A stretch of 64,000 nucleotides of DNA. It comes from a virus. Taxonomy: Duplodnaviria > Caudoviricetes. Position numbers and translations under genes: made by a program. Location: IMG/VR virus record IMGVR_UViG_3300027374_000002, positions 20,097 to 84,096 of that record; one strand, given 5' to 3'. The notes beneath the pieces are model-generated. The model had not been told where the DNA came from. It did no database searches and worked only from the letters and a program-made list of their open reading frames with translations. How positions within the stretch are numbered: position 1 is the stretch's first letter; every line of letters starts with the position of its first letter. Below are positions 25,325-48,285 of the stretch, one piece after another.

Positions 25325-26898
25325 TGCCGAAGGTTACAGTAATTCCAGCAACAAAGGATTTTTATACCGGCGTTGATAATAACACGTTCAAAAAGAAAAA
25401 GGTGGCTGCATATGCGCGAGTTTCCACCGCAAGTGAAGAACAGGAAACCTCATACGATGCGCAGGTTGATTACTATACGAAGTATATTCAGGGACGACCG
25501 GATTGGGAGTTTGTAAAAGTTTATACGGACAAGGCAATAACCGGTACGAATACCAAGCGTAGGAAAGGGTTCAAAGAAATGATAGACGATGCGCTTGCCG
25601 GAAAGATTGATTTAATTGTTACTAAGTCCATCAGCCGATTTGCACGAAACACGGTTGACACTCTGGTTACGGTCCGAAAGCTGAAAGAGAAAGGCATAGA
25701 GGTTTACTTTGAAAAGGAAAACATCTACACGTTGGATAGCAAGGGCGAGTTGCTCATAACGATTATGAGTTCGCTGGCGCAGGACGAAAGCCGAAGCATA
25801 AGTGATAACGTAACGTGGGGACAGCGGAAGCGATTTGCGGACGGAAAAGTTAATATGCCTTATAAAAGGTTTCTGGGTTATAAAAAAGGTGAAAACGATC
25901 TGCCGGAAATCGTGCCGGAACAGGCAGAGGTGGTCAGGTTGATTTACTCGCTTTTTCTGGAAGGCAAGACGAGCTACGGCATAGCGAATTACCTGACAGA
26001 ACAGCAAATCCCTACCCCGACAGGGAAGGTTATTCCCTGGAAATCAAGCACTATTGAAAGTATTCTACAAAATGAAAAATACAGAGGTTCGGCGCTTCTG
26101 CAGAAGAAATATACGGTGGACTTCCTCGAAAAGAAAATGATAGTCAACGATGGAAAGGTCCCGCAGTATTATGTAGAAGACAGCCACCCGGCAATAATAA
26201 CGCCAGCGGAATTTGAAATTGTGCAAGGTGAAATTCAGCGCCGGAAAGCAAACAAAGGGAAATATAGCTGTTGCGCACCTTTTGCTTCAAAGGTTGTGTG
26301 CGGCGATTGTGGCGAGTTCTACGGGCAAAAGGTCTGGCATTCGAATAGTAAATACCGAAAGATAATATACCGCTGTAACGGCAAATATCACGGCGAGAAA
26401 TGCGCAACGCCCACCCTCACGGAAGAGCAGTTGAAAGAGGGGTTCCTCAAAGCCATCAACAGCTTGATAGGCATTAAGGAAAGCCTGCTGGAAGATTGCC
26501 GGGAAATGCAGGCGGTGCTATCCGACACTGCAGCATTGGACGAAGAATTGAAAACCGTAACCGATGAGTTTATGGTGGTTCGAGAAATGCTTCGGAAGAT
26601 GATTGAAGATAACTCGCGCAAGGTTCAGGACCAGGATGAGTTCTGGGCGAAATACAACCCGCTGGATGAGAGAGCGAAAAAGGCTGATGCGCGAATTAAG
26701 GAATTGATGGAGCAGCGCACACAGCGCATACAGAAAGCGGAAACAATCGGCGCGTTTATGTTCGAGCTTCACGAGCGCGATGAAGCGGTGGAAGAATTCG
26801 ATAATAAGCTCTGGTTTATGACGGTTGATAAAGTGGTGGTTCAAAGGGACGGAAAGCTGATTTATCATTTCCGCAACGGATTAACGGTTGAAGTGTAG
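25324..26898 (+). CDS. Large serine recombinase (probable prophage integrase)
   Basis: AAYARVST, TKSISRFARN, CGDCG Zn ribbon, coiled coil. Confidence 0.93.
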   Translation: MPKVTVIPATKDFYTGVDNNTFKKKKVAAYARVSTASEEQETSYDAQVDYYTKYIQGRPDWEFVKVYTDKAITGTNTKRRKGFKEMIDDALAGKIDLIVTKSISRFARNTVDTLVTVRKLKEKGIEVYFEKENIYTLDSKGELLITIMSSLAQDESRSISDNVTWGQRKRFADGKVNMPYKRFLGYKKGENDLPEIVPEQAEVVRLIYSLFLEGKTSYGIANYLTEQQIPTPTGKVIPWKSSTIESILQNEKYRGSALLQKKYTVDFLEKKMIVNDGKVPQYYVEDSHPAIITPAEFEIVQGEIQRRKANKGKYSCCAPFASKVVCGDCGEFYGQKVWHSNSKYRKIIYRCNGKYHGEKCATPTLTEEQLKEGFLKAINSLIGIKESLLEDCREMQAVLSDTAALDEELKTVTDEFMVVREMLRKMIEDNSRKVQDQDEFWAKYNPLDERAKKADARIKELMEQRTQRIQKAETIGAFMFELHERDEAVEEFDNKLWFMTVDKVVVQRDGKLIYHFRNGLTVEV

Positions 26899-27932: not shown

Positions 27933-27961
27933 TTGACAGCGGGCTGCCTGTTTGATATAAT
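27933..27961 (+). promoter_or_regulatory. Consensus sigma-A promoter of the RNase III operon
   Basis: TTGACA-17 bp-TATAAT with TG extension. Confidence 0.85.
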
Positions 27962-28171
27962 AAAAGCACAGAGAAGGGCATTGCAAAAAAAATAGTCGGA
28001 TGTAAAGCATCTTGGATTTGCGACCTGTTATGCAAGTGACAGGGAACAAGGACGAATGATTTATATAACACCATTTTTTGAGTTGATGCCTGACGGGGCT
28101 ACAAGGGCGTAGTCTATATTCGTCAGGCTCATTTTATGCCCTCTGTGAAATAAACACGGAGGTATTTTTTT

Positions 28172-29242
28172 ATGAAGGATGAACAGTACACCGAGATTGA
28201 ACAGCAAATCGGTTACGAGTTCGAGAACAGGTTGTTATTGCAGCAAGCGTTCACCCGGAAAAGCTATACGGAAGAAACGCACGATGGCGATAACAATGAA
28301 GTGTTGGAGTTCATTGGCGATAAGGTTCTGGACCTGATCATCGTCAAGGTTCTGACTGAGTATTACGGTGAAATTAACGAACGCAACGAGTATGAGTGCG
28401 AATACACAGAAGGCAAGCTCACTGAGTTTAAGAAGCATCTGGTGGAAAGTAAGATGCTGGCTGAGCGCATAGACGAGCTTGGATTCGCGGATTACTTAAT
28501 TATGGGGAAAGGGGACAAAAAGAATAATGTCCAGAACGAAACCCATGTGAAAGAGGATTTATTTGAAGCAATTCTCGGCGCTGTTGCCCTTGACAGCGGT
28601 TGGGATATGGCTGCAATGCAGGACGCGGTGGAAATGATGCTGCACGTTGATTGCTATTTGGATGAAGGGTTCGATGAGGACCAGGACTATGTTTCCATCA
28701 TCCAGCGTTGGCAGCAGAAGCGCATCGGGGAATTACCCGATTACAAGTTTACGGACAAGCAGACTTACGACTTAAACCGCATGCTTCGGTGTTACACCTT
28801 TGTAAACCGGCGTGAAAGAATGGAAGCGGGTGAAGGTGATATTGTTTGTGAATTGCGCATTGATGATGGTGAACCGTTTGTTGGTTTCGGGTATTCAAAG
28901 AGCCTGGCAAGAATGGCGGCGGCGGAGCTTGCGTATGATTATTTGGATGAAAACGGTCTTCTGCGCACAATGCAGGATGAGATTGGTGAACCTTCGCGCG
29001 AAAGAGCAGTGAGCCAACTTCACGAGCTGTCCCAGAAGGGATACTTCTCTGCGCCGGTTTATGAGTTCGAAGAGGACCACGATGAAAACGGGAACCCGGT
29101 CTGGACCTGCGAATGCAGCATCGCCGAATATGAGGACGCATATTTTTACGAGGCAAGTTCGAAGAAGGAAGCGAAACGGCTGGCAGCTTATGAAATGCTT
29201 CTCTCGATTCTAAACCATACAAATGAGGAGGATGACAGATGA
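28172..29242 (+). CDS. RNase III family endoribonuclease with two dsRBDs
   Basis: NEVLEFIGD and EDLFEAILGA (catalytic acidic residues present); two dsRBD-like segments ending SKSLARMAAA and SKKEAKRLAA. Confidence 0.9.
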   Translation: MKDEQYTEIEQQIGYEFENRLLLQQAFTRKSYTEETHDGDNNEVLEFIGDKVLDLIIVKVLTEYYGEINERNEYECEYTEGKLTEFKKHLVESKMLAERIDELGFADYLIMGKGDKKNNVQNETHVKEDLFEAILGAVALDSGWDMAAMQDAVEMMLHVDCYLDEGFDEDQDYVSIIQRWQQKRIGELPDYKFTDKQTYDLNRMLRCYTFVNRRERMEAGEGDIVCELRIDDGEPFVGFGYSKSLARMAAAELAYDYLDENGLLRTMQDEIGEPSRERAVSQLHELSQKGYFSAPVYEFEEDHDENGNPVWTCECSIAEYEDAYFYEASSKKEAKRLAAYEMLLSILNHTNEEDDR

Positions 29243-30648
29243 GAGTTGTATCAACAAAGCTGAAAATGGTTGATGCGTTTACGGAAGCGGAGTTTTTCGG
29301 AACCATAAATCAGTGGATGAAAAATGCCGGTCCTTGCAAGGCGGTGGCTGAACAGCTCGAAGCCTGCGAAGAGAAAGTTGGTGTGCATCTGGAAGCGGAA
29401 TATTGTATTGCGGATACTTTCCAAATCGAAAAGGAAGATTCAACGTTCACCCTGTTCAAGTTGGAACAGGAATTCCATCAGCAGACCTGGACGAACGAAG
29501 TTATTCTTAAAAGTGCCGGCAGTGAGAAGGAGGTGTTCTTCCACATTGATTGCTCCCGCGATGCGACCAGATTTGACGAAGCACCTGAAATGCGCACAGA
29601 GGTTATTCGCACTTTTGTAAACAGCGGGTATGTAAAGCAACCGAAGGTTCCTATTACTTCCAGGACCGTTGAAGCAACCAATGACCTGCTCGATTGGATA
29701 GCGGCTGCTATTCAGGAAGAATATACTGAGGAATTGCCGTTAATTCTTGCGACTACATATTTTGGAAGCCAGGCAATCGAGATTGATGATTTTGCGCTTT
29801 CGAGGAAGTTGGCAGGACTTGCGTACATTGTGGTGTGCGATAACGAATACACAAGACTTCTGAAGGATAAGGCGAAATGTGCAGTGCCGTTCAATGGCGC
29901 GGTTACAATTTACTGCAAAGGTGGGAAGCCGCGTCAGTTCCGGAAAAAGGATGCGTTCCTGGGCGCAACGCTTGATAAGCAGATAGCAAATGAAGTGCAA
30001 AGGTTTGTAACCGCAGCGGTTGATGCCGAAGCACCGACTTGGGAAGCACTTCACGCTGAGCTGGTTCATAAGGAAGCGAAAGAAAATGCTGCTCTGGCAG
30101 AAGAAGCGTTCGATGCAAACGAAACGCTGGACGAAAAGCTGAAAAGGGCAGAGGAAAGAATCGCAGCGCTGGTGCAAGAGAACATGCAGTTGACTGCAAA
30201 GAACGAAAGCCTGAACAGAGCGCTTACGAAAAACGATGCCGTTCAAACGGTATTAGAGGCTTCAAGCATTCCGGAGTTCTTCGAAGGCGAACAGCACGAT
30301 TTGGTGGTTTCCATTTTACAGAAAGCGCTGTCGAACTGCGGCACAAAGGATACTCGGCAGAAAGAACTGCTCACCGACCTTTTGGCGCATAACCATATAA
30401 TCGGAAAAGGCAAGGAACTGTTCGAAGTGGTTAAGTCTATATTCGCTGATGGTGAAGACCTTTCCGCGAAAGAGCTGGCAGAGCTGAAAAGGGTGGGCTT
30501 TGAAATCACAAGCGAGAACACGCACTACAAGCTGGTTTATAAGGGAAGCAAATACTGGTTCAGCTTGGCGAAAACCACGAGCGATAAAACCCGCAGCGGG
30601 AAGAACCTGACTTCGGACATTACGAAAACACTCTCGGTCTATAAATAG
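29239..30648 (+). CDS. Hypothetical protein with coiled coil and HicA-like C-terminal domain
   Basis: ATGA overlap with the RNase III gene; LKRVGFEI...THYKL...KTTSDKTRSGKN. The HicA call is pattern-based. Confidence 0.7.
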   Translation: MRVVSTKLKMVDAFTEAEFFGTINQWMKNAGPCKAVAEQLEACEEKVGVHLEAEYCIADTFQIEKEDSTFTLFKLEQEFHQQTWTNEVILKSAGSEKEVFFHIDCSRDATRFDEAPEMRTEVIRTFVNSGYVKQPKVPITSRTVEATNDLLDWIAAAIQEEYTEELPLILATTYFGSQAIEIDDFALSRKLAGLAYIVVCDNEYTRLLKDKAKCAVPFNGAVTIYCKGGKPRQFRKKDAFLGATLDKQIANEVQRFVTAAVDAEAPTWEALHAELVHKEAKENAALAEEAFDANETLDEKLKRAEERIAALVQENMQLTAKNESLNRALTKNDAVQTVLEASSIPEFFEGEQHDLVVSILQKALSNCGTKDTRQKELLTDLLAHNHIIGKGKELFEVVKSIFADGEDLSAKELAELKRVGFEITSENTHYKLVYKGSKYWFSLAKTTSDKTRSGKNLTSDITKTLSVYK

Positions 30649-31241: not shown

Positions 31242-33008
31242 GTGAACTCAATGCCCACTAACAATAAATACGAAGATATGAGCGCCCTTGATGCGCTGCG
31301 CTTTGCCGAGAACCATACCTTATTGCTGCCGGATATCCAGAGGGAATATGTATGGGACTATCAGGAAATCGAAAGGCTGTTTGAATCAATAGTGGACGAG
31401 TACCCGATTGGCTCTTGTATTTTCTGGAAAACCAACCGCGCAACCATAAACGCAGAAAAACCGAACCTGTATTATTTTCTGCGTGAGTACGAGCGCTGGA
31501 AAACGAAGAATGAAAAAGCGCCGGAGGTGTTTAGCAACGAAATTGATTATTACATCGTGCTTGATGGACAGCAGCGTATCACCTCACTGAACATTGCACT
31601 TTATGGTTCGTATACATATTACAAGGGCGGCAGGGGACACGCTTGGGATAATCCAAAGTCGTGGTTGACAAAAGAGCTTTATTATAACCTTGATTTCTAC
31701 GCGGCATCCAATGAAGAAGAGGATGATGAGAACCCCAGGAAGCGCTTTGTTTTTTTAACAAAGGAGGATGCGGAAGCGGGACATTATTACAAAATAAAAA
31801 ATTTACTCGCATTCGATAAATTGCAGCGGTTTGTGCTTGCTTTGAATAATCTGACAACCGATGAAAAGGTAATCGATGACTTGTCAATGCTCTTTGAGCG
31901 TCTGCACAACGCTTCCGGGAATGGGTTGATTCATTACTATTGTATTTCCGAAAATACATACGATGAAGCTCTGGACATCTTTGTGCGCGTAAACTCCACC
32001 GGCAGAAAGCTCTCAAAATCTGACTTACTTTTTTCGACCTTGATAGACGGGTGGAAGACCGGCAAAGAGAATATTGAAAACCTTCTCGCCACGATGAATT
32101 CCAAAGGGGACAAGTTCAATTTCACCAGAGATTACTTGATGCGACTTTGCCTGGTTCTGGTTGATGCTAATACAAACCTGAAAATAAACTCTTTAAATCA
32201 AAAGACGGTTTTATCGATTCGTGATAATTGGGATGCGATATACGCCGCCGCAGATACCATGTCAACTGTCCTGGCAGACATTGGTCTTTCCAACGAAACC
32301 TTGACTTCGTATAACGCAACGATGCCCATCGTTTATTTCTTATACAAGGGCGGCAAGATAAAAGATAAAGAAGCGAAAAAGGAAGTGCGTAAATTCCTGT
32401 CGGTTGCTATGGCTCAGCGCCTCTTCGGTGTTGCAAGTAACGATGCTTTGAATAAAACGCGCAACGTGCTGAAAGCGCTTGATTGCAAGAAGGCGGTTTT
32501 CGGGTTATCACTTTTCGCGGAAACCACGCTCACCGGTGGCAGAACATTTACGGTTTCTGAAAAGGACATCGACCATTGGCTGAATACCTACGAAAAAGGG
32601 CAAAGCACATATTTGCTTTTGGCGCTGCTTTACCCGAATTACAAGTTGAGCCAGGTTGCGTTCCATCAGGACCATTGTCACCCACACGTATCTTTTGATG
32701 ATAAAAATATAATTGCACTGGGGCTGACCGAAGAAAAAGTGAAGGAGTGGCAGAAGAAGCGTAATCTCCTTCCGAACCTTCAATTTTTGGAAGGTACAGA
32801 AAACGAGTCAAAGAATAAAACACCGCTTTATGAATGGGTGAACGCAGGGTATAACTTTTTGTATCGTCCCGCGGGCGTTTCACTTGAACTGAAAGATTTT
32901 GATGTGTTCTTTAATGAAAGAAGGAAGCTGATTAAAAAAGAACTCGCATCGATATTCGGCGTTACGCTTCCGGAAGAAAACCCGGACAGCAATACTGAAG
33001 AAGCATAA
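31242..33008 (+). CDS. GmrSD-like (DUF262 + HNH) modification-dependent restriction endonuclease
   Basis: LPDIQREYVW, VLDGQQR, FVRVNSTG, C-terminal QDHCHP...NLQFL...NESK. Confidence 0.88.
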   Translation: MNSMPTNNKYEDMSALDALRFAENHTLLLPDIQREYVWDYQEIERLFESIVDEYPIGSCIFWKTNRATINAEKPNLYYFLREYERWKTKNEKAPEVFSNEIDYYIVLDGQQRITSLNIALYGSYTYYKGGRGHAWDNPKSWLTKELYYNLDFYAASNEEEDDENPRKRFVFLTKEDAEAGHYYKIKNLLAFDKLQRFVLALNNLTTDEKVIDDLSMLFERLHNASGNGLIHYYCISENTYDEALDIFVRVNSTGRKLSKSDLLFSTLIDGWKTGKENIENLLATMNSKGDKFNFTRDYLMRLCLVLVDANTNLKINSLNQKTVLSIRDNWDAIYAAADTMSTVLADIGLSNETLTSYNATMPIVYFLYKGGKIKDKEAKKEVRKFLSVAMAQRLFGVASNDALNKTRNVLKALDCKKAVFGLSLFAETTLTGGRTFTVSEKDIDHWLNTYEKGQSTYLLLALLYPNYKLSQVAFHQDHCHPHVSFDDKNIIALGLTEEKVKEWQKKRNLLPNLQFLEGTENESKNKTPLYEWVNAGYNFLYRPAGVSLELKDFDVFFNERRKLIKKELASIFGVTLPEENPDSNTEEA

Positions 33009-33024
33009 ATAAAAACCATCACCT

Positions 33025-33045
33025 CTTAATCGGGGTGGTGGTTTT
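33025..33045 (+). repeat. 21-bp direct repeat, copy 2 (bidirectional terminator)
   Basis: Identical to 31150-31170; part of the AAAACCATCACC...GGTGGTGGTTTT hairpin. Confidence 0.9.
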
Positions 33046-33202
33046 CTTCATTTTCGGAAGCGGCTTCATCAATAGCTTTCCGCGCGCGGTTGCGTTGCAT
33101 ATCGTAAAAAGCATACAGTAAAAGCGCGACTGTTTCTTCCGGCGTGTTGGGATTATGGAAGTGGAACTTCAGCTCCGGACGGGAGGGTTTATTCCTCGTC
33201 AT
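33026..33202 (-). CDS. Small hypothetical protein
   Basis: Likely ATG at 33202; ELKFHFHNPNTPEETV; overlaps the end of the upstream gene. Confidence 0.5.
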   Translation of the reverse strand: MTRNKPSRPELKFHFHNPNTPEETVALLLYAFYDMQRNRARKAIDEAASENEENHHPD

Positions 33203-34148
33203 CGTTTCCGGTTTCTTCTTCGCCATCTTCCGATGATACCTCGTTGAGGTTTTCGTCAAGCGTGAGTTCTTCTACCTGACCGCCGTTCTGGAAAAGCGCA
33301 TCGTCATTTACTTCGTAGAACTCATCGTCATCGCCAATATTATCAAGCCCGGAGTAGTCCTTTGCGAAGAGCGCGTTCAACTGAAGTTTGGCTGCGTTGG
33401 ATTTTTTCTTTCCGTTATATTCCAGAACCATTACTTCGGCGTAGCCCATGCAACCTGCCCGGCGTTCCTTCGCGGTGCGGGTGAGCTGCTTAATGGAAAT
33501 AGCGCCGAGCTTTTCTTTGAACAGGTCATCGTCCAGCGCTTCTTTATAGACCACGACCAGCTTTGCAACGGCTTTCATAATGTTTGCGCTGAAGGAATTA
33601 TAGTCTCCTTCCCAAGCGCCGATAATAAGCCGTAACACGCGGTCTAAGGCGTGGTATCCATGTTTGTCGAAGATGTACTCAAGCGTGGAAACTGCGCAAA
33701 TCGCGCCCGGTTTTTTGGAAGAACCGATTATCATTCCATAGGATTCAACCAGGTCTCGTATCATTAATTGTTTGTCATTTCCGGCTTCGATATTTGCCAT
33801 AAAGATTTCGTAAGGAATGAGCGGCTTGACGAACTTCATCTGGTTTGCGAAGATGTCCGCTTCATGCGAATAGTCAAGGTCATCGTAAACCATACACCAG
33901 ACCGGCGTTTCGCGGGAACCGGAAACGAGCGCCACGATTTCAATGGTGTGCTGCCCGTTGAATACATAATTGATTCCATTGCGGCGGCTGACTTTTACAG
34001 GGTTTATTTGGTAAAGGTCGAAGTTTTCTGCCGCGCGGTTGATATGAGAGCGGGAGAGGTTGCGTTGATACTCCTGGTTGGATACCAAGTTTTTTATGGG
34101 TATTTGCTCAAAATGTACGTTGGGTACGAAAGCAGAGAAATCGGGCAT
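33189..34148 (-). CDS. ParB/Srx-fold protein (DUF6551-like)
   Basis: IPIKNL...EYQR...NPVKVS...FNGQHT; acidic tail. Confidence 0.75.
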   Translation of the reverse strand: MPDFSAFVPNVHFEQIPIKNLVSNQEYQRNLSRSHINRAAENFDLYQINPVKVSRRNGINYVFNGQHTIEIVALVSGSRETPVWCMVYDDLDYSHEADIFANQMKFVKPLIPYEIFMANIEAGNDKQLMIRDLVESYGMIIGSSKKPGAICAVSTLEYIFDKHGYHALDRVLRLIIGAWEGDYNSFSANIMKAVAKLVVVYKEALDDDLFKEKLGAISIKQLTRTAKERRAGCMGYAEVMVLEYNGKKKSNAAKLQLNALFAKDYSGLDNIGDDDEFYEVNDDALFQNGGQVEELTLDENLNEVSSEDGEEETGNDDEE

Positions 34149-34150
34149 TT

Positions 34151-35083
34151 TTAGACCTCCTCAATTAAAAACAGCAATTCGGTTACTGCGGAAGCAAGCT
34201 CGTCAAGTATGGTTTGTACTTTTATGAGTGCCGGCTTGGAAACGGTGCTGAAATTTGTGTTTTGTTTGGTGCGTTGTATTGAATCAAGCCACGATGGGAT
34301 GGTGAGCGTTAAGCTGTTGATGGCTGCATCAGGATCGAAGGTTGGCATATCTTTTACGGATGATTGTGCGCCGGAAGCGGAAGGAGTGTAATTGCTTTGA
34401 ATAACGGCTCTGCTTTTTTTGAATTTCAGGATTACCTGGTTTCGGGAATTGCCGAGCCGCTTGTTTAATTTTTGAAGCTCTTCCGGAGACATCCTTTCAA
34501 CTTCCAAGATGCTATTGTGCGATATTTTATAACGCCCGGATAGTATCTTGGGTACAAGCTCTGGGGCTTTCCTGCCGATTTCCAAAATGGCGCGGGTGTA
34601 GCGGGCATACTTCTGTATGGTGCCGAAGGATACGTTGTTTTCTTTTGCAAGCCGCTGCGCAGTAACGTGGCGGCAGGGGAGTATTTCGCTTTCCGGTAAA
34701 AAATCATCTTCCTCCTGTGGGTTCAAAAGGTCATCGCGTTTATTTGAGTTGATGAGCTTTTCCGTTTCATACTGCATTCCGATGAGGAAGTGGCGTGCTT
34801 CTTCGGTTATGTTGTCGCGCTTGCATTGTGTTGCACAAATCCATACAACGGCAGCTTCCTTGCAATCGAACGGCATTTCTTCAACTGAAAAGGGAATATG
34901 ATATCGGGTACAAATATCGTAACGGCAATGACCGTCAATGATGAACCCGCGCCAGACTTTTATGGGTTCCAGACAGCCGTTATTGAGAATGCTGGTTTCG
35001 AGTTCCAGGAATTCCTTTTGCGGATGTGGGCGAATGAGAGACTTAAACTCTCTGCATATTTCGAGCGTATGGTTAGTTTCCAT
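34151..35083 (-). CDS. ParB-like N-terminal domain plus HTH protein
   Basis: LETSILNNGCLEPIKVWRGFIIDGHCRY; HTH TAQRLAKENNVSFGTIQKY. Confidence 0.8.
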   Translation of the reverse strand: METNHTLEICREFKSLIRPHPQKEFLELETSILNNGCLEPIKVWRGFIIDGHCRYDICTRYHIPFSVEEMPFDCKEAAVVWICATQCKRDNITEEARHFLIGMQYETEKLINSNKRDDLLNPQEEDDFLPESEILPCRHVTAQRLAKENNVSFGTIQKYARYTRAILEIGRKAPELVPKILSGRYKISHNSILEVERMSPEELQKLNKRLGNSRNQVILKFKKSRAVIQSNYTPSASGAQSSVKDMPTFDPDAAINSLTLTIPSWLDSIQRTKQNTNFSTVSKPALIKVQTILDELASAVTELLFLIEEV

Positions 35084-35474
35084 TAGGAACCTCCGGCTCG
35101 ATGCGTTTTATTGTTTTTAATGAAAAAACTGCCGCTGCTTTAGATGAAATAACTTCACCCGAAAGACGGTAGGAGTAGTTAGTTTCCAGACCGCCGATAA
35201 CTTCGCAAAGACGGGTGATAAAAGAGCGGCTGTAAATTTCATAGGAATTATCGGAATTCATCAGGCTCATATTAACCTTGTGCGACTGGTCTCCTGACAG
35301 CTCTTTTTCTACTGGGCGAATAGCGACAGCCATCATTGATGGGTTGACCAGAAGTTGAATATACTTCGGATCGCCCAGAAGGTGAATGGTTTGCTTGTGG
35401 ATGCGTATTCTGTATTTTTTCAGGTCAATAGCAATTGTGGTGGGTGTAGAAGTGGGACTACTCATGTGAGCCAC
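35073..35474 (-). CDS. Hypothetical protein, paralogue of the recombinase C-terminal domain
   Basis: YIQLLVNP...AIRP...YRLSG. Confidence 0.75.
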   Translation of the reverse strand: MAHMSSPTSTPTTIAIDLKKYRIRIHKQTIHLLGDPKYIQLLVNPSMMAVAIRPVEKELSGDQSHKVNMSLMNSDNSYEIYSRSFITRLCEVIGGLETNYSYRLSGEVISSKAAAVFSLKTIKRIEPEVPNGN

Positions 35475-36228
35475 CTCCGGCTGTTATGCCAACGGAAAGA
35501 GAGGGCTGGTCCTGACCACCCGTGGGTGTTTCTTCCGGCTTCAGTTGAGCATCCTCTTTAATTGTATAAATTGCGTAACCGTCAAAGATATTGATTTGCA
35601 TCGACTGCTTATGTTCGTTATAAGGCAAGCCGAATTGATTCTGCCAATCTTGCGGAAATACCGGTGTTCTGGAAACTTTCGGTTTTGCGCCGTCGGGGAA
35701 AGTCTTCTGGTAAACTTCGGCAGCGGTAAGGTCATACGCAATCAAGTATTCGCCGTTCGAGTGGATGAGCTTGCCAAGAAGTTTGTACCTGAAATCCGGG
35801 TTCCATCCCATAAGCTCAACAATTTTTGCGAAGAACAGCTTGCAAGTTATTGGCTTGGGTTTGCGTTTTCCTTTTCCAGGTTCAGTACACCACATAAAGG
35901 AATCGCGGGAACCTTCGTTGCAAGGGCGAAGGGCGAGTATCTTTCTTTCGCGGTTAACGAGTACCTGCGCGTACCCGGAGTTGGGGAACTTGGAAAGGCA
36001 GGCGGCATTGACATAGAATTTACAGTTGTTAAAGGAAACGGAAGGCTCGTGCATATGCGCGAAGAATTCACGCCTTACAACCTGGAAATCGTCAAAGTTA
36101 AAGTCCTCGCTCAGTTCCAGCAGTTCGTCATTCTCGCCAAGAACAGGGGGAACATTTCCATCTGGTATAGGAACGCCGTTCGGGGTAGGCTGCTCAAGGT
36201 CAGTGGTGTTTTCTTCATTTTCAATCAT
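35458..36228 (-). CDS. Hypothetical protein, paralogue of the recombinase C-terminal domain
   Basis: DFQVVRREFF, PSVSF, GWNPDFRYKLLG, FGLPY. Confidence 0.8.
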   Translation of the reverse strand: MIENEENTTDLEQPTPNGVPIPDGNVPPVLGENDELLELSEDFNFDDFQVVRREFFAHMHEPSVSFNNCKFYVNAACLSKFPNSGYAQVLVNRERKILALRPCNEGSRDSFMWCTEPGKGKRKPKPITCKLFFAKIVELMGWNPDFRYKLLGKLIHSNGEYLIAYDLTAAEVYQKTFPDGAKPKVSRTPVFPQDWQNQFGLPYNEHKQSMQINIFDGYAIYTIKEDAQLKPEETPTGGQDQPSLSVGITAGGGSHE

Positions 36229-38131
36229 TAGGTATTACCTCCTGTGGCGTTATGCCAGTTAATTCTTGATTTATGTACGTTTGCAATTCCTCAAAGCCTG
36301 TCACTCGGATTTGCTTTCCGGTTTCAAATAATTGACCTTCCATTCGTATTTTCCAATCCGACTCGCTTTGATTTGCAAGCGCGGAGAGAGTCTGCTCGTG
36401 TAAATAGTACGGCTTACCGAAACTATCGGTCCACGCTTGCGGTATTGCACGGATGCGGTTGCGCGAGGGGGTATAAGGTTGGACTGTACCTTTGCCGCCA
36501 GCTTCGGTTGCTTCCTGGCTTGTTAAAACATAGGACTTGAAGAACGCTTCCGAATTGGTGGTATCAAAGATGTACGCGATTTCATTATCCTTTTCATATA
36601 GTGAACCGATGATGCGGTAACGGCAATCGGCGTTCCATCCGAAAAGCGAGAAGAGGGTGTCGTTGAAAGCGGCGGTTGATATCGGGCGAGAGTAGTATAC
36701 CTTCTCTGATATCTTCGAGCAGATGACAGCCTGACGGTTTGATTTGTCAGTTGTGCGAATGGCGAATTTCTTTTCTATCGGATTAATCAATAGTTCGATG
36801 TAATTTCTTTCGCCCAGCTTCCGGATGCACTCGGTGCTTAACTTGAGCTTTTTCTCTGCAAAGGTAATAGAGGGGCGGCGGACACTATCGAAGAATTCAG
36901 TGCGTGTTATTTCAAACCCGCGCATGTCAAAGTCTCCGGCTTCAACAGGTATCTTTATTTCCTGCGGGACTTGGGGTTCTGCGGGTTGCTCATTTTCCGG
37001 AGTGGTGTAAACGCTGTTCGCAGCTTCGAAATAGTCTATTTCCTTGAAGCCTGCCCAGCGGGGGTTGATAACAACAAAACCCTTTAATATGCCGCTGTCA
37101 ATTACGCGAAGTTCCGGAAGGAAGGATTTATTCCTGTATTTGGCATTATCCAGCATGCGCTGAACCGCAATGAAATCATCTCTTGATACAATGGCTTCAT
37201 GGTGCTTGTGGTATCTGCTTTGGGGACGGTCTCCGCGATTTTTTACAGACTTATGATCGCGGTAATTTGGCGTGAATGTTTTTCGGGTAAGAACATCGCC
37301 GCAGTGTCGCTCGTTGCGTAGGATTTGAACTACACCGCTTGAAGTCCACTTGTTTGTGTTTCCGAGATATGACTTTCTGCCGAGCGCGTTCAAAGTGTCC
37401 GCTATCTGCTGCGTTGAGTAACCATAAAGATACATATAAAATGTGAGCTTTACGGTGGGTGCTTCTTCTGGATTGATGATTAAATTCCCATCTTCATCGT
37501 GCGTATAACCGAGCAGCTTCGGAGTAAGGGGAATGCCATGGTCCAAGCGCATACGCAGAGAGGTTTCCATACTGCGGCTGCGGGTGTGTGATTCTTCCTC
37601 TGCCATAGTTGCTTGGAAGGACAGCGCCATTTGCGAATCGTCATTCAAAGAGAAGATGCATTCCGATTCAAAGAAAACTCCGACAGGGGGTTTCAATTCA
37701 GCAAGGTCGCGCGTAAGTCCGATGCAGTCAACCACGTTTCTGGCAAAACGCGAAACGCTTTTTGTAATGATAAGGTCAGCTTCGCCGGCTTTGCAGTCGG
37801 CAATCATCTGGTTGAAATTATCGCGGTGTAGGCGGGAGGTTCCGCTTATGCCTTCGTCTGCGTAAATTTTGATAAGAGTCCAGTGGGGGTGCTTCTGTAC
37901 GAATTCTTCATAGTATTGTCTTTGAAGCTCGAAGGAAGTGGTCTGCCGGACATCGTCTGTCGAAACGCGGACATAAATAACCACCCGCATAGGCGTATCG
38001 TTGTCATAATAGTCGACTCTTTTCCGCGCGGGTGTGAATTCGTAGTTCTCTTCATCAATTTCAAAGCGCATACGCTTTCGCGTTTTGGCTTTCTCGCGTT
38101 CCTTGGAAACGCGGCGTTCTTCATCAATCAT
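36221..38131 (-). CDS. Large serine recombinase with extra C-terminal domain
   Basis: VIYVRVST, TKSVSRFARN, recombinase domain; no Zn ribbon, extra domain in its place. Confidence 0.92.
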   Translation of the reverse strand: MIDEERRVSKEREKAKTRKRMRFEIDEENYEFTPARKRVDYYDNDTPMRVVIYVRVSTDDVRQTTSFELQRQYYEEFVQKHPHWTLIKIYADEGISGTSRLHRDNFNQMIADCKAGEADLIITKSVSRFARNVVDCIGLTRDLAELKPPVGVFFESECIFSLNDDSQMALSFQATMAEEESHTRSRSMETSLRMRLDHGIPLTPKLLGYTHDEDGNLIINPEEAPTVKLTFYMYLYGYSTQQIADTLNALGRKSYLGNTNKWTSSGVVQILRNERHCGDVLTRKTFTPNYRDHKSVKNRGDRPQSRYHKHHEAIVSRDDFIAVQRMLDNAKYRNKSFLPELRVIDSGILKGFVVINPRWAGFKEIDYFEAANSVYTTPENEQPAEPQVPQEIKIPVEAGDFDMRGFEITRTEFFDSVRRPSITFAEKKLKLSTECIRKLGERNYIELLINPIEKKFAIRTTDKSNRQAVICSKISEKVYYSRPISTAAFNDTLFSLFGWNADCRYRIIGSLYEKDNEIAYIFDTTNSEAFFKSYVLTSQEATEAGGKGTVQPYTPSRNRIRAIPQAWTDSFGKPYYLHEQTLSALANQSESDWKIRMEGQLFETGKQIRVTGFEELQTYINQELTGITPQEVIPND

Positions 38132-38777
38132 CGGAAGTTCCTTTTTCGGTTATATTTTCTGGGGTAGTATCTTCGGGCAGAACTTTCCAATCCGGTGAGG
38201 GAAGGAAGAAGGTGTCTTTCAGGTCATTCTGGTAATAAGAAGCCAGGGTGAAAATATCCTCCGAAATAAAATAAATCCCGATAGGAGGTGTGTGCGCTGC
38301 AAGCAGTCTGGCGCATAATGTAACCTCGTGCATTTTCTTAGAAACGTTCGAGACCTTCTGGGTTATAATTAAATCGATCTTGCCTTCCATTGCATCGTTT
38401 AATAAACGACTCCATTCGGAAGCGGATTCCATGTTGGGGGCGGTTGCGCCTTCGTCAATATAGAAATCAATGAGCGTCCAATTCGGGCAGAGGTTGATTG
38501 TGTCTTTGAACTGTTGCTTATGAAATGCGAGGTAATCCTCGTACCGGGTTTGATTAAAATACCTAATATAAACGCCAACCTTGAATGGCGTTGCGGGGTT
38601 CGGGAATTCGTGGCGAATACTGTGGAACCAATTTTTATGGTCAGCAACCTTCTGTGCGTGTTCGGAGTTGGTGCCGAAAATTGAAAGCTGCTGGGGCGCG
38701 TTTGCTATTTCCTGAAACTTATTTATAATGTCTATTTCGTTGGGCATAAAAATCCTCAAGGCATAATTATGTGACAA
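38124..38777 (-). CDS. Resolvase-domain protein lacking the catalytic Ser
   Basis: VGVYIRYFN; FYIDEG; KIDLIITQKVSNVS. Confidence 0.8.
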   Translation of the reverse strand: MSHNYALRIFMPNEIDIINKFQEIANAPQQLSIFGTNSEHAQKVADHKNWFHSIRHEFPNPATPFKVGVYIRYFNQTRYEDYLAFHKQQFKDTINLCPNWTLIDFYIDEGATAPNMESASEWSRLLNDAMEGKIDLIITQKVSNVSKKMHEVTLCARLLAAHTPPIGIYFISEDIFTLASYYQNDLKDTFFLPSPDWKVLPEDTTPENITEKGTSDD

Positions 38778-38867
38778 TTATAGAGTCCCGCGCCGGAAAA
38801 AGGAATAAACCAGCGGTCAAGTAAATAACCACTGGTTTATGAAAAAGGCATCTTTTTTGAAATTAAT

Positions 38868-38900
38868 AAAAAAAGAGTGGAGCTGTCTCCACTCTTTCTT
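38868..38900. terminator. Hairpin/terminator after the XRE gene
   Basis: AAGAGTGGAG-CTGT-CTCCACTCTT with an A run on the left and TTCTT on the right. Confidence 0.7.
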
Positions 38901-38901
38901 G

Positions 38902-39261
38902 TTAGTCTTCTTTGTTTGTACGCATTGAGGTTTTGATTTCCTGAATGATTTTCAGGAGCGATTCAAGTTCCGCGGCGGTGCAGTCTTTGAAGATTTTTTC
39001 GAACTCACCTTGATAAATCGAATTGACGGTAGGAACGTTCGGACGAAGGATCTCATCAGCCGACACTCGGATTACCTCGATGATTTTGCAAAAGGTGAGA
39101 ATGCTCAGTTGCTTCTTGCCGCATTCAATATCGGAAAGGTGGGAAGCATTGAGGTTCGCAGAATAGGCAACATCCGCTTGCGTTAGCCCCGCGGCTTGCC
39201 TTGCTTCTCGGAGGCGATTTCCGATTTTTTTTAGTTTTTTTGATTCGATATTCTCTTCCAC
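38902..39261 (-). CDS. XRE-family HTH regulator
   Basis: IGNRLREARQAAGLTQADVA...HLSDIECG. Confidence 0.9.
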   Translation of the reverse strand: MEENIESKKLKKIGNRLREARQAAGLTQADVAYSANLNASHLSDIECGKKQLSILTFCKIIEVIRVSADEILRPNVPTVNSIYQGEFEKIFKDCTAAELESLLKIIQEIKTSMRTNKED

Positions 39262-39273
39262 GGTTGCACCTCC

Positions 39274-39358
39274 TTCGGCTATAGCTTATATTTTGACCTA
39301 ATTTTATCATCTATAGCCGAAATTCAAAATCAGCTATGGACGAGAATATCGGCTATGG
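39274..39358. promoter_or_regulatory. Operator-like repeats between the divergent XRE genes
   Basis: TTCGGCTATAG (39274-39284) / CTATAGCCGAA (39311-39321) perfect inverted repeat; TCGGCTATGG at 39349. Confidence 0.65.
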
Positions 39359-39398
39359 CATATAATTGAGTGGACTTTTTTTGGAGGAAAAACGAAAG

Positions 39399-39761
39399 AT
39401 GGCACTCAATTACATTTTACTTGGCAAGCGTGTGAGGGACCTTCGCGTTAAGCGTAAGATGTCCCAGGCAGAACTCTCAGAGCTTATTGAAAAGTCCCCG
39501 CCTTATGTCAGCTACATAGAGAGCGGAATTAAAAGCCCCAGCCTGGACACGCTCATTTTGCTTGCGAATGCTCTGGGCGTTACTGCTGATATGCTTTTGG
39601 CAGAGAGCCTGGATAACCACCTGATGGTGGATGTGGGGGAATACGCTGAATTGCTCAATGACTGCTCCCCATATGAGCGGAGGGTTTTGATTGAAAATGC
39701 GCGGGCGCTGAAAAAGACGATGCGTGAATACCACTTTTTGTCAAAGCGCAAGAACCGGTAA
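39399..39761 (+). CDS. XRE-family HTH regulator
   Basis: LGKRVRDLRVKRKMSQAELSE...YVSYIESG. Confidence 0.9.
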   Translation: MALNYILLGKRVRDLRVKRKMSQAELSELIEKSPPYVSYIESGIKSPSLDTLILLANALGVTADMLLAESLDNHLMVDVGEYAELLNDCSPYERRVLIENARALKKTMREYHFLSKRKNR

Positions 39762-42728: not shown

Positions 42729-42904
42729 CTACTTTTGAACCCGAAAAACGGGATATAATTGACGAGCTGAACGAGCTTGTGCTTCGGGCAAATTGGGGAA
42801 CTGTTGACCGCATAGATGGGCAACCAAAAGGCGTGGTCATAATTCAAAAAGCCATTGATGAAATTATGCAATTGAGGAAGCTGAAGAGAGGAATAAAAGA
42901 ATGA
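42725..42904 (+). CDS. 59-aa hypothetical protein (not in the ORF track)
   Basis: Fills the gap exactly with 4-bp overlaps at both ends; RBS AAGGAAGG. Confidence 0.6.
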   Translation: MTTFEPEKRDIIDELNELVLRANWGTVDRIDGQPKGVVIIQKAIDEIMQLRKLKRGIKE

Positions 42905-43716
42905 AGTTTTATGTGGTTGCCGATGTTCATGGGTTCTACGACTTGATGATAAAGGCACTAACTGAAAAGGGATATTTCGAAGACACCGAGCCGCACAAGC
43001 TCGTGATTTGTGGTGACCTTTTTGACAGGGGTTCGCAGTCAAAAGAATTAGAAAAATTTGTGGTTGACTTGCTTGAAAAAGACGAAGTGATTTTAATTCG
43101 CGGAAACCATGAGGACCTGATGCTTGACTTGGTAAATAGGCTGGGTGAGTATGTTGTCAGGGGAATCGAACATACGCATCATTACAGAAATCGGACCGTC
43201 AGAACTTTGATGGATTTGACTCGATGCAGTCTTGGAAAAATAAAGCAGCAGCCCGATGTGGTCGCTGAAAAAATGAGAGCTACACCTTTCCTCAAAAAGA
43301 TAATTCCGGCGATGCTTGACTTCTATGAAACCAAGAGTTATATTTTCGTCCATGGATGGATTCCCTGTCACGCCAGCGGGTATGGAGGGGAAGCCGACTG
43401 GTTCAATTACCAGGAAAATTGGCGAGAAATGCCCAAGAGCGACTGGATGCTTGCACGCTGGTATAATGGAATGCTGGCTGCTTTCCAGGGGTGCTATGAA
43501 CCTGGAAAAACAATCGTCTGTGGACACTGGCACTGCGCCTTCGGGCATACTTATTTAGAGAAAAAAGACCTGACACCGGAAGAGATGCGGTCAAGGTCTT
43601 TTGAGAGAGATTGCACTCCGTATTACGGTGAAGGCGTGATTGCTATTGATGCAAGCACTGTCCTGAGCAGGTTTGTGAATTGCATCGTCCTTGAAGACGA
43701 AGAAATAAATCAATGA
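42901..43716 (+). CDS. Calcineurin-like metallophosphoesterase
   Basis: ADVHG, GDLFDRG, GNHED, VHG, GHWH. Confidence 0.9.
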   Translation: MKFYVVADVHGFYDLMIKALTEKGYFEDTEPHKLVICGDLFDRGSQSKELEKFVVDLLEKDEVILIRGNHEDLMLDLVNRLGEYVVRGIEHTHHYRNRTVRTLMDLTRCSLGKIKQQPDVVAEKMRATPFLKKIIPAMLDFYETKSYIFVHGWIPCHASGYGGEADWFNYQENWREMPKSDWMLARWYNGMLAAFQGCYEPGKTIVCGHWHCAFGHTYLEKKDLTPEEMRSRSFERDCTPYYGEGVIAIDASTVLSRFVNCIVLEDEEINQ

Positions 43717-44100: not shown

Positions 44101-44160
44101 ATTTGAACGGTGATGAGAGGTTTTGAACGGTCAGTGGTCGATTTGAACGGTCAGTGATTT
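44101..44160 (+). repeat. Three tandem 20-bp-period repeats
   Basis: TTTGAACGGT at 44102, 44122 and 44142; copies 2 and 3 share 15 bp. Confidence 0.85.
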
Positions 44161-44186
44161 TTGTATCAAAATCTCTCATCTTTCAC

Positions 44187-44227
44187 AAAAAACGGTGAAA
44201 AGTTTTAACGCTTTCCACCGTTTTTTC
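44187..44227. terminator. Bidirectional terminator
   Basis: AAAAAACGGTG...CACCGTTTTTT. Confidence 0.7.
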
Positions 44228-44363: not shown

Positions 44364-45575
44364 TTAAAATTCATAATTCACTAATTCAATTTCGTTGAAA
44401 TAGAAATCTTCTGAATATGTAGTATATCCGCGGTTGACTTTCGAGCTTTCGACTTCCTTATCTTCCGTATGCCCCGACCAGAGCATAACCAATTCGAGGC
44501 TGCATCTGCATTCCTTGCAACGGCTTATAAAGGTATATCTGAGTTCGTGCAAACGGCGTTTAGGGAAAATCATTTTGAAAACGTTGTCAATGTACCTGTA
44601 ATGTACCGTCTTTGCTTTTTCAAAATCAATGTAGGGCAAAACTTTACGGAGCATAGGCGAAATAGGAATTTGACGGTGAACGTCGGGAAGGCCTTGACGG
44701 GTTTTCTCTGTAATGCAGTCAATATAATCGTGTTTGCCCTGAACGTATGAAATAGCTTTCAGTTCGCCAACACGCATACCCGTTTAAAGCAGTAATAAAA
44801 TCGCGGGTACCGCTTTTAAATGACTGTTAGCAATACAGAAGTCAACAATTTTTCTTTCTTCGGCATAAGTGAACGCTTCGCCTTTTTCAACTTTATATCG
44901 AGGTAAAACGACCTTTAAAAGAGGATTTTTAATATTGTAATCGTCGCAGGCGATTTTATAACTTGCGCCGAGCTGTTGTTTTACCTTCTTTGCTGTTCGG
45001 TTTTTGCCTTCTTCGGTAAGCAAGAAAATATAATTCTGAATATCATTTCTTGTTAATTCGTCTAAGTGTAACTGCCCAAACGCCGGAATTATATGTGTGC
45101 GCCACGTTGAAACATAGCCGTTATAGGTGCTTTCCTTTGTTATAGGTTTAATAATATTAAGCCAAGTAATAGAGAAGTCTTTTATTAAAGGCACCTTGCT
45201 CTGCATAGCTTTTTCCTGCTCCCTGAGCTTATCAAGGAATTTCTGTTTTAATTCCTTTTGGCTTTTGGAAGCAACGTTGATATGGAAACCGTCACGGTTA
45301 TATCTGATTTGGTACATTCCCCGTAATTCAGTGCAGGGCAGTACTCTACCATTTATCGTAATAAATTGTTTTATGCTTTCAGGCATATCTTCTATCTCCT
45401 GTTTGGTAAATTTAATAAACTTTTTGTCGGAAAGATCCGCGGGCTGAACTTTATTCTTTACAGCTTTTAAGGCAGCCGAATCCGCCACTAACTGTAATAC
45501 AGAAGCGGTTAAATCGGCTGAGTCAGGTGATGACTGTATTAAATTGAGTAAAGCATTCAATTCAGTGTTGTTCAT
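44364..45575 (-). pseudogene. Tyrosine integrase interrupted by one in-frame TAA
   Basis: Reads ...AILLLL-TAA(44784-44786)-TGMRVGEL... in one frame; HELR, WSGH and GY catalytic motifs lie downstream of the stop. Confidence 0.9.
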
Positions 45576-46134
45576 AAAATCCTTTCCAAATAGGTGCAAA
45601 TACATAATAACCAGAAGTGGAAGGACTTTCAACAAGGTGTTTTAACGGAATGTTCGAGCTAAATTCACGTATTTTTGGTGTTCTTTTGCGATTTTTTGTG
45701 CTATCCCCACCCAACACACAACATAATTTTTCCTCCTTCTTAAAACTACATTTCCCATAAGTGCATAGGTCGGAGGTGAAACATTGTTTAAAATAAAAGC
45801 ACTACAAAAGAAAAAAGATGGCGCAAATCATAATTTTAAAAATACCCGCCAAGGCAAAAAAATTGTGTGATTACAAAAATTAAAATAGCCAAACTGTTTT
45901 TACACAGTCTGGCTTCTTTTATATTAAGTTACAAAAAGAGTTTGGTGGTTAAGCGCAAAGCAATTATTTTGCCGACGTTTTTGCTTTTGCTACGGCCTAT
46001 GCTATACTACAAAACCTCTACCAAAATACGTTGCACTATTCTTTACGGTGAAACTACACGGTAAGCTACTAAAAAAGAAAGAAAAAAGCGGGGGCAACAG
46101 AGAAGGGAAAATATGTTTTTAGTTTAGCTGTGGG

Positions 46135-46617
46135 TTAAAAGTATTCTACACTGTCTAAAAATGCTTTTACGTTAGGTAAACTAAGCGCGTCAAAAACAGA
46201 TTTTTGAAGTTTTTGTCCTTTGTTTGGCATTAAATAAATGCTGACGGTTACTTGGTTTTGTTTAAGGTCGTTAGGCGTAAAATCATAGCGTTCTTCATAA
46301 TAGTCTGAATATCCTACCGTTCCTTTAATGTGAGCGGCAATGGCTGTTCCTTTGCCTCTTGTGACGGGGTAAAATTCACCGCAAAGTTTCAGTTCACAGT
46401 CTTCAATAAATTCTTCCATAGCTTCTTTAGCATTTAGTTCTGCTTCTTCAAATTCTACGTCTATAAAAATTCTACAACCTTTAAGAATTCCTTGTTCAGA
46501 CTCAAATTCAAGCAAATGGTAATGACCGCCCGGCATTTTAAGATTGAGTTTAAAATCTTCGGGTAAAGCGAATGTCATGTTTGATCCAATAAGTTTTCCA
46601 TTTTTTATCTTGAGCAT
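46135..46617 (-). CDS. Hypothetical cargo protein
   Basis: 160 aa, AT-rich, abuts the upstream gene. Confidence 0.65.
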   Translation of the reverse strand: MLKIKNGKLIGSNMTFALPEDFKLNLKMPGGHYHLLEFESEQGILKGCRIFIDVEFEEAELNAKEAMEEFIEDCELKLCGEFYPVTRGKGTAIAAHIKGTVGYSDYYEERYDFTPNDLKQNQVTVSIYLMPNKGQKLQKSVFDALSLPNVKAFLDSVEYF

Positions 46618-46619
46618 AT

Positions 46620-47420
46620 TTATTCTCCGCGTTTACAGTTTTCTTCCCATTGTAACATTTTCAGTTCAAAAAGTTTTGCATTTTCTTCGTTATAAAATCT
46701 AAAGCAAGAGAATAGTGCAAGTTTATAATCAAGGCTATTCGTATCACTGTTTGCCAAGACGAAATGACCTTTATGTTTCCTTACTAATCGCTTAATAAAA
46801 GGTGACAGTAAAGGCATTTCTTTAATATATCTATCAATGCAACTGCCCTGTTTCAAATGCTTCATTTTAACTGCTTTGACAAACTTCATAATTTGTTTAT
46901 AGTAATTATGTAAAGCAGTTCTGTCTAAAATATCTGGTACCGAGGCAAATAGGTCGGGTTCGACGTCGGTTTTGATTATTTCCCCAAACATAGGGTATAA
47001 GCCTTTGAGGTATTCGTATAACCCGTTTTTGTAATGCTCTATGTCGTTTTCTTCTTCATCAAAGTTTTTAGATATTGGTGCGCCTTCAAATATATATTCT
47101 ATTCTATCTTTGAAGTAATCAAAACAGCAGATATCAAAGTCAATTTCGGCTACGCAACTATTATTTATGTAATCTCCGTCTATATGTTCCCTGTCTAAAA
47201 AACGAGCTAAACTTCGTATCCCTAATTGGTCAATATACTTTTCAAATGGTATGGGTTCGCGGGGCTTAAGTTTTTTAAAGATTATATTTTCGTTTGTATA
47301 AAGGTTAAATAAAATTACAGCATCAAGGCAAGCCAAAGCTCGCAATATTTCTTCTTCTGAGTGTTGTTCAATATTAGGTATGTCTTTTGTGAATTCTTTG
47401 ATAAATTGCTTGTCTTTCAT
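46620..47420 (-). CDS. Hypothetical cargo protein
   Basis: 266 aa, RBS AGAGG, AT-rich. Confidence 0.7.
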   Translation of the reverse strand: MKDKQFIKEFTKDIPNIEQHSEEEILRALACLDAVILFNLYTNENIIFKKLKPREPIPFEKYIDQLGIRSLARFLDREHIDGDYINNSCVAEIDFDICCFDYFKDRIEYIFEGAPISKNFDEEENDIEHYKNGLYEYLKGLYPMFGEIIKTDVEPDLFASVPDILDRTALHNYYKQIMKFVKAVKMKHLKQGSCIDRYIKEMPLLSPFIKRLVRKHKGHFVLANSDTNSLDYKLALFSCFRFYNEENAKLFELKMLQWEENCKRGE

Positions 47421-47489
47421 AAATTTACCTCTTTGTGGTTCATTAATACAAGTATAGCAGTTGTTAGGGAATAGCGCAATTATTTTGTT

Positions 47490-47526
47490 TGTCGAAGAAT
47501 GTCGAAACGAAGGAGCGTGTGTCGAA
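47490..47526 (+). promoter_or_regulatory. Three Spo0A-box matches (TGTCGAA)
   Basis: Exact TGTCGAA at 47490, 47500 and 47520; 0A-box consensus is TGNCGAA. Confidence 0.6.
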
Positions 47527-48280: not shown

Positions 48281-48285
48281 AAAAT

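Follow-up and report, generated by a model that had tools for sequence, protein, structure and literature searches.

A large serine recombinase with a predicted barrel-type C-terminus, its non-catalytic paralogues and ParB-fold proteins form a conserved cassette of Candidatus Heliusvirales prophages

In normal serine integrases, the zinc-ribbon and coiled-coil part of the protein serves in site recognition and in the control of direction. To our knowledge, every characterised serine integrase relies on this domain for site choice and direction control. Here we describe a cassette built around a large serine recombinase (LSR) predicted to lack it, located at positions 33026-39761 of a 64,000-nucleotide (nt) window of viral DNA (Caudoviricetes; positions 20,097 to 84,096 of the 84,096-bp IMG/VR record IMGVR_UViG_3300027374_000002). 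The cassette comprises a minus-strand operon (33026-38777) and an upstream pair of regulator genes. The operon's seven open reading frames (ORFs; g1-g7) overlap or abut their neighbours, an arrangement proposed in a preliminary description of this DNA and borne out by the ORF coordinates. Our best guess is that the whole serves a temperate Candidatus (Ca.) Heliusvirales prophage as an accessory cassette that regulates itself.

The LSR is encoded by g2 (36221-38131; g1-g7 all lie on the minus strand), which was assigned from Pfam, PHROG and paralogy evidence. It carries a Resolvase domain (PF00239, E 1.9e-23) and a Recombinase domain (PF07508, E 4.9e-22, residues 221-328), its best PHROG is phrog_95, integrase (5e-83), and the catalytic Ser and Arg are invariant in 80/80 distinct homologues. 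On this basis, g2 is predicted to be catalytically intact and to be the sole such recombinase in the cassette. No match to Zn_ribbon_recom (PF13408) was found in g2 at E<=0.01, whereas both LSRs of a second recombinase cluster in the same prophage (cluster A, described below) match this family. In place of the zinc ribbon, the C-terminal half of g2 is homologous to g3 and g4, and the protein is predicted to be without a coiled coil and to end instead in a beta-barrel, which agrees with the LSR of atypical C-terminal domain that had been described. The g1 product (38124-38747; listed as 38124-38777, with the alignment of relatives placing the true start at ATG 38747) gives a weak, sub-threshold Pfam match to Resolvase (E 6.7e-4) and shares 30% identity with the g2 N-terminus across 125 amino acids (aa). 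Its nucleophilic Ser is replaced by Phe in 65/67 distinct homologues, within a conserved YIRYF-NQT motif, suggesting that this dead resolvase, as it was rightly called, is a maintained pseudo-enzyme rather than a decaying gene.

Two further copies of the g2 C-terminal domain are encoded as free proteins, namely g3 (35458-36228; 256 aa), recognised by paralogy and an AlphaFold model, and the shorter g4 (35073-35474; 133 aa), recognised by paralogy and conserved in position across loci. With E-values taken from a tiny local database, the g2 C-terminus matched g3 at 27% identity over 203 aa (E 3e-28) and g4 at E 2e-5, while g3 matched g4 at E 1e-4. Both the proposed pair of paralogues of the LSR C-terminal domain and the proposed combination of one catalytic subunit with non-catalytic paralogues are upheld. 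In the g3 model, residues 60-180 form a confidently predicted core (predicted local distance difference test, pLDDT, ~90) with the layout beta-beta-alpha-beta-beta ... alpha-beta-beta-beta. Structural matches to g3 all fell below the reliable level: VIA-align returned MraZ, of the AbrB/MraZ swapped-hairpin type, as best (Z 4.1, root-mean-square deviation 3.1 over 85 residues) along with four plant B3 DNA-binding domains (Z 2.3-2.9), and the best Foldseek matches were sliding clamps (E 4.5e-3, TM 0.09). On the model, a DNA-binding pseudobarrel is a plausible identity for the triplicated domain. A profile search placed 2020 cluster representatives in the g3 family at E<=1e-3, most of them stand-alone proteins of 120-300 aa.

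The remaining conserved genes encode two ParB-fold proteins. For g5 (34151-35083), a structure model (mean pLDDT 83) and Foldseek point to a ParB N-domain, a helix-turn-helix (HTH) and a helical C-terminus. Foldseek matched the model to pNOB8 ParB, Spo0J, Noc and KorB at probability 1.0 and E 2e-5, and the superposition spans the ParB N-domain plus the HTH, as anticipated for a ParB-HTH protein. No Pfam match was found for g5, and its profile gave only chance matches against PDB sequences. It contains GxxR-type (DGHxRY) and NQ..RRN..E boxes; G51 is invariant, and H52 and R54 are nearly so. The g6 product (33189-34148), with its QR and NGQHT motifs, matches the ParB-fold family DUF6551 (PF20188; E 1e-31, 110.8 bits against a gathering cut-off of 26.8), which confirms it as the second ParB-fold protein, and g6 is the cassette's most conserved gene (62-96% identity in the surveyed loci). 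A 2025 preprint reports that phage DUF6551 fusions bind CTP or ATP in vitro, so that the nucleotide binding earlier attributed to ParB-fold domains has been demonstrated for members of this family.

These genes form one conserved unit, as had been claimed. A search with the cassette genes gave 293 matches in GTDB species genomes, and in a survey of 79 IMG/VR loci and the best 80 of these 293 matches, the order and spacing of g2-g6 were constant in all loci long enough to show them. Among the best 80 of the 293, carriers were mainly Clostridia and the closest cassettes, at 96% identity, were those of mouse-gut Christensenellaceae metagenome-assembled genomes (MAGs). One large lineage has g1 and another is without it. 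The last gene, g7 (33026-33202), is a sublineage-specific 58-aa ORF coupled to the g6 stop, which its likely start (ATG 33202) overlaps; it is conserved in the nearest relative only, with protein-level conservation confined to locus L084. In the phage collection, g3 was found in only 19 metagenomic records, 16 of which are Ca. Heliusvirales, and its search against 72,556 plasmids returned a single remote match, a distribution that bears out the view that the gene set is not a described standard integration module. The Heliusvirales paper makes no mention of the cassette genes, and in the protein atlas their products bear only automatic names, for example 'putative integrase'.

Upstream of the operon, Pfam matches confirm the divergent XRE pair of the preliminary description. 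The cro-like regulator xreP (39366-39761, plus strand; HTH_3, 5e-17) is divergent from the cassette, adjoins it in most surveyed loci and is part of a 7-kb unit common to several genomes at 85-88% nt identity (see below). The cI-like regulator xreM (38902-39261, minus strand; HTH_31/HTH_3, ~1e-9) is co-directional with the operon and conserved upstream of g1/g2 in the surveyed loci, and is followed by an intrinsic-terminator-like hairpin (38869-38900, minus strand; a 14-pair stem, then a T run) that is present in several relatives in the intergenic alignment. The same alignment defines a palindrome (38805-38840), a candidate operator or recombinase site with a 10-nt centre. The 12-bp near-perfect repeat previously reported at 38806-38839 is real, with arms that extend to 13 nt (38805-38817 and 38828-38840) and one mismatch. 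Its position is fixed in >20 lineages, with conserved outer bases (ATAAACC / GGTTTAT) and inner bases that covary symmetrically in lineage-specific versions; in g1-less lineages the corresponding place, upstream of g2, is taken by another palindrome, AAATAGACTAnAGG. This conservation of sequence argues for recognition by a protein, although the palindrome may instead act as an RNA hairpin. It is single-copy in the 84-kb record, where neither a second copy nor further res-like subsites were recognised. After 24 nt it is followed by a conserved TATAAT (38777-38782, minus strand), the operon -10 box, whose column is kept in almost all aligned lineages, and then by the ribosome-binding site and the g1 ATG. 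In loci L097, L090 and L093 of the g1-bearing lineage, three palindromic operator copies (TATAGCCTACAGGCTATA-like) lie ~150 bp upstream of xreP, between the divergent XRE genes. At the far end of the operon, another hairpin (33012-33045) separates g7 from a convergent GmrSD gene.

The prophage that harbours the cassette belongs to Ca. Heliusvirales, is colinear with Dorea phage NatCom_31361 and has the gene order replication, terminase, head, tail, lysis, cluster A, cargo, cassette, XRE switch, a few early genes and, last, a metallophosphatase. The earlier statement that replication, conjugation and capsid genes are absent is therefore correct inside 33026-39761 and does not extend to its setting, as terminase, portal, capsid and tail genes lie upstream. 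Cluster A (23497-26898, plus strand), 6 kb from the cassette, comprises a dead resolvase of 166 aa and two LSRs of 463 and 524 aa, both with Resolvase, Recombinase and Zn_ribbon domains; the 166-aa ORF is resolvase-only and has YVRRK where YxRVS is expected. Cluster A is probably the phage's true integrase pair.

A described precedent is Phi1207.3 of S. pyogenes, in which two serine recombinase genes follow the lysis cassette and which integrates at a fixed dinucleotide in comEC. Among relatives of the present phage, four prophages (in genomes G005, G413, G415 and G416) interrupt comEC at residue 251-262, with attB across codons AISG|LH; the core of attP is common to all four, and each arm carries TATCCCCC repeats. 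In G005, attP is reached past g6 and then 8 kb of cargo, whereas G413, G415 and G416 have it on the XRE side; the same comEC attB is used by two circular permutations of the phage. In G004 (Anaerocolumna), an intact comEC directly adjoins the g6 end and TerL is 29 kb further into the prophage; in locus L163, host genes follow g6. The position of the cassette at a prophage edge had been considered as a sign that it is the integrase, a reading dropped once cluster A was found at the opposite edge and attB use was seen to track cluster A identity. Cluster A homologues occupy the far edge of the G004 and G005 prophages, with mgtE next to them in G004, and the placement of the two clusters at opposite edges implies that attP lies between two convergent recombinase clusters in the circular phage. 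The G004 chromosome contains two more Heliusvirales prophages in which cluster A is present and the cassette absent.

Site use follows the cluster A LSR rather than g2. The C-terminal 185 aa of the cluster A LSR are 58% identical between G005 and G413, which share the comEC attB, while the C-terminal regions of G004 and G413, which use different sites, are 27% identical over 104 aa. For g2, pairwise identities among G004, G005 and G413 are 60-66% with mixed site use, including 60% for G005 and G413 at the same attB, and g2 of G006 is 82% identical to that of G413, yet G006 is without comEC within 10 kb; this comparison covers five genomes, of which G006 may be a remnant. Because comEC site use follows the cluster A LSR, the cassette is probably not the integrase, and we hold with moderate confidence that cluster A would integrate the phage while the cassette does something else. 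For the same reason, an excision/integration switch finds no support.

The alternative that the cassette is an integration/excision machine, with g2 as an alternative integrase or the cassette setting att direction, and with g3/g4 binding arm repeats in the manner of the lambda arm-binding domain plus Xis, is considered unlikely. It draws on the classical integrase position of the cassette, co-directional with a cI-like gene by the lysogeny switch, on its location at or near one prophage edge in G004, G005 and L163, and on att arms with repeats (TATCCCCC in the comEC phages, three TTTGAACGGT here). Similarly, 6/6 GenBank Heliusvirales records with a comEC fragment from aa 251 carry the cassette, and CAGTGGT is common to the palindrome half-site and one arm repeat, although this last likeness is weak, with 7 copies in 84 kb against ~10 expected. 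However, the choice of attB goes with the cluster A LSR and not with g2, attP is on one side of the cassette in G005, on the other in G413 and at a distance of 5 kb in the window, the G004 chromosome has integrated Heliusvirales prophages that lack the cassette, and the arm repeats may also occur in cassette-less phages.

The comEC prophages correspond to loci L145/L179/L182 (G413), L151, L155 and L161/L183 (G005), all Lachnospiraceae-type. Both ends of the 'complete genome' of Dorea phage NatCom_31361 (PV036443.1; L002/L003) are comEC fragments, which implies a prophage cut out with its host flanks, and six other PV0364xx records carry comEC from residue 251.

The cassette also occurs apart from a prophage. 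In Anaerotignum neopropionicum, an intact copy that includes g1-g6 and the two XRE genes is flanked by host genes (a permease and a nitronate monooxygenase on one side, genes resembling those for non-ribosomal peptide synthetases on the other), and the same 7-kb unit is found in five other genomes at 85-88% nt identity with matching homology limits. Such a discrete unit with its own regulators, shared by six genomes in both phage and non-phage contexts, could be a selfish mobile cassette, an element of the TnpX/TndX kind excising and inserting by means of its LSR and hitch-hiking in prophages. We nevertheless regard this as improbable, for no terminal repeats or conserved ends of the cassette were found and, in G413, 2 bp separate the g6 stop codon from that of the next recombinase gene, two findings that equally leave the targeted transposon of the preliminary description without support. 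In addition, the stand-alone copy ends within the XRE operator region on one side and 20 bp past g6 on the other, while the phage-borne relatives share 100 bp more, including a terminator, and for this reason it looks like a deletion remnant rather than a precise element. Its empty site was not recovered, as relatives share the nitronate monooxygenase gene only.

The intact copy kept in this chromosome is among the observations that would suit a role in defence or superinfection exclusion, exercised from the prophage, with ParB/DGQHR-like NTPases as the sensors of foreign DNA. The patchy presence of the cassette among related phages is consistent with such a role, as are its own XRE regulators and its position in a cargo hot spot with other defence genes, namely GmrSD and an RNase III cassette here, a restriction-modification system in G005 and Abi_2 with a nuclease toxin in L115. 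In contrast, the strictly conserved recombinase active site points to real recombination chemistry, and we know of no defence system that has a serine recombinase and inactive paralogues as its core, which likewise counts against this explanation; we consider it doubtful.

As our favoured but tentative reading, we propose an auxiliary multi-subunit serine-recombinase system, probably distinct from the integrase, that would act on phage DNA at the promoter palindrome. In this proposal g2 would carry out the recombination chemistry, and g1, g3 and g4 would be architectural subunits that build the synaptic complex, like the catalytically silent resolvase dimers at res accessory sites. The result would be a hetero-oligomeric recombinase with architecture and regulation supplied in trans, as suggested by a competent g2, by the conservation of paralogues that are inactive and by the missing coiled-coil control element. 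The g5 and g6 proteins would act as nucleotide-gated DNA-loading or regulatory proteins, and the palindrome could be both operator and recombination site. As this single conserved palindrome is the only candidate site, a reaction between phage genome copies is favoured, for example resolving or cyclising an excised or replicating circle that is handled as an episome. More generally, the cassette may represent a new class of serine-recombinase machine, a possibility to which we give similarly limited credence, in which the catalytic and DNA-binding modules are distributed over active and inactive subunits and joined by a pair of nucleotide-gated ParB-fold proteins, for a reaction other than integration. 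Such a reaction could be the maintenance or resolution of an excised circle in reversible ('active') lysogeny at comEC, or the recombination-based exclusion of foreign DNA. The multi-subunit, nucleotide-regulated recombination machine of the preliminary description is thus retained in part: the conserved unit, its one catalytic subunit, the inactive paralogues and the two ParB-fold proteins, one of a family that binds NTP (DUF6551), speak for it, while its transposon and excision-switch versions are unsupported.

Several observations weigh against the proposed auxiliary recombinase. No recombination product was observed at the palindrome, which could be an operator only, or a second terminator. 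The single remote plasmid match of g3 would be surprising for a set of genes that maintains an episome, none of the nine cassette proteins matches a ParA-type family in Pfam, and all examined bacterial-chromosome copies lie in chromosomal DNA, as prophages or stand-alone. A role in resolving phage genomes leaves the Anaerotignum stand-alone copy unexplained, and the cassette is dispensable, since only a subset of Heliusvirales carries it. The size of the attB comparison and the standing of G006 within it belong to the same side of the balance.

Other features of the prophage and its surroundings concern its ends and cargo. The cargo between cluster A and the cassette consists of the RNase III cassette and GmrSD. 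The former (27950-30644), which encodes RNase III and a 469-aa protein, has a copy of 76% nt identity in a Christensenellaceae MAG, at another locus that is not within the prophage (G001:C3:57868-60552), and, judging from this, behaves as mobile cargo. The window encodes two GmrSD_N proteins (DUF262, itself a ParB-like fold) at 31242-33008 and 59360-61183, the first wedged between cluster A and the cassette. In locus L103 (10983-20016; G414:C11), g6 and a convergent LSR pair are separated by ten kb of genes for sugar use (alpha-L-rhamnosidase, MFS transporters); this DNA is either cargo of the phage, of an unusual kind and at an attP hot spot, or host sequence that separates two elements.

The prophage end block (44102-44187, plus strand) contains three TTTGAACGGT repeats at 20-bp spacing and coincides with the limit of homology to the nearest relative: nt homology with G002 ends at ~44187, and radical-SAM and SecD host genes come next in that genome. 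No left-end partner of this block, as a direct or inverted repeat, was found above chance, no tRNA was found at the prophage ends, and scans of viral contigs gave 0 matches to the end-block pattern and 2, both irrelevant, to the metallophosphatase protein. That protein (42901-43716), calcineurin-like and encoded by the last gene ahead of the prophage end, is also encoded near the cassette in L103. The directionality factor of Bxb1, gp47, is a phosphoesterase-like protein, and on this likeness we take the metallophosphatase to be a candidate recombination directionality factor for cluster A.

Past the prophage end lies a separate small element (44364-58427) with a tyrosine integrase apparently split into ORFs of 283 and 137 aa, tandem XRE genes and a rolling-circle Rep (PF23343). 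On the other side, a Hachiman-like pair (a HamA domain protein and a DEAD/ResIII helicase; L004 769-4841) is directly left of the prophage GC jump at contig position ~5000. At the end of the record, the first 57 codons of hsdS follow hsdM (63830-64000), and its start holds the last 219 hsdS codons on the same strand (L004 1-660), indicating either a circular molecule with a ~400-bp gap or an assembly break in repeated hsdS copies. The hsdS halves hinted at an episomal phage-plasmid, a reading of the 84-kb record that was rejected: the phage is treated as integrated because the same end block precedes host genes in G002 and the G001 prophage sits in a 163-kb chromosomal contig.

Serine integrases rank among the major tools of genome engineering, and the cassette would be a widespread natural alternative to zinc-ribbon/coiled-coil control (2020 barrel-family representatives; 293 GTDB matches). 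Its reaction, once worked out, could reveal a new mode of regulating or targeting recombination and could give a role to orphan phage ParB-fold proteins. The cassette may also help to explain lysogeny in gut prophages that are very common and whose insertion disrupts the competence gene comEC. Cultured carriers, which include Jutongia huaianensis NSJ-37, Kineothrix alysoides KNHs209, Anaerocolumna sp. MB42-C2 and Anaerotignum neopropionicum DSM 3847, make the function of the cassette directly testable.

Comparison with described systems places these features in context. The comEC phages Phi1207.3 and Phi10394.4 of S. pyogenes are a parallel to cluster A and to the comEC insertions of the relatives, not to the cassette, and the paper on them describes no ParB-fold genes or triplicated domain. 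Phage P1, with Cre-lox and ParB-parS, offers a functional analogy to the proposed system, drawn from gene layout, in that a single site by a recombinase gene, beside an immunity repressor, serves to resolve or cyclise the phage circle; however, Cre is a tyrosine recombinase and P1 a plasmid prophage, whereas the chromosomal cassettes examined are all in chromosomal DNA. The CTP clamps ParB, KorB and Noc share with the g5 model the ParB N-domain plus HTH fold and the GxxR-type and NQ..RRN..E boxes, and the g6 family is likewise ParB-fold with demonstrated CTP or ATP binding; the cassette differs in having no ParA inside and no identified parS, and in being nearly absent from plasmids. The Tn3/gamma-delta resolvase-res systems and the RK2 ParA resolvase at the parCBA promoter resemble the cassette only in how it might work, with a candidate site in its own promoter and non-catalytic subunits proposed to shape the synapse. 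Here there is one palindrome in place of three subsites, the proposed architectural subunits are separate genes and g2 has a Recombinase domain where those resolvases have a simple HTH. Finally, g2 is like the serine integrases phiC31, Bxb1, A118, SPbeta SprA, CcrA/B and TnpX in its catalytic Ser/Arg domain and Recombinase domain. It departs from them in the predicted beta-barrel domain that replaces the zinc ribbon/coiled coil and in an attB choice among relatives that does not follow it, and the cassette as a whole differs by co-encoding two free copies of the barrel and a protein with a dead catalytic domain.

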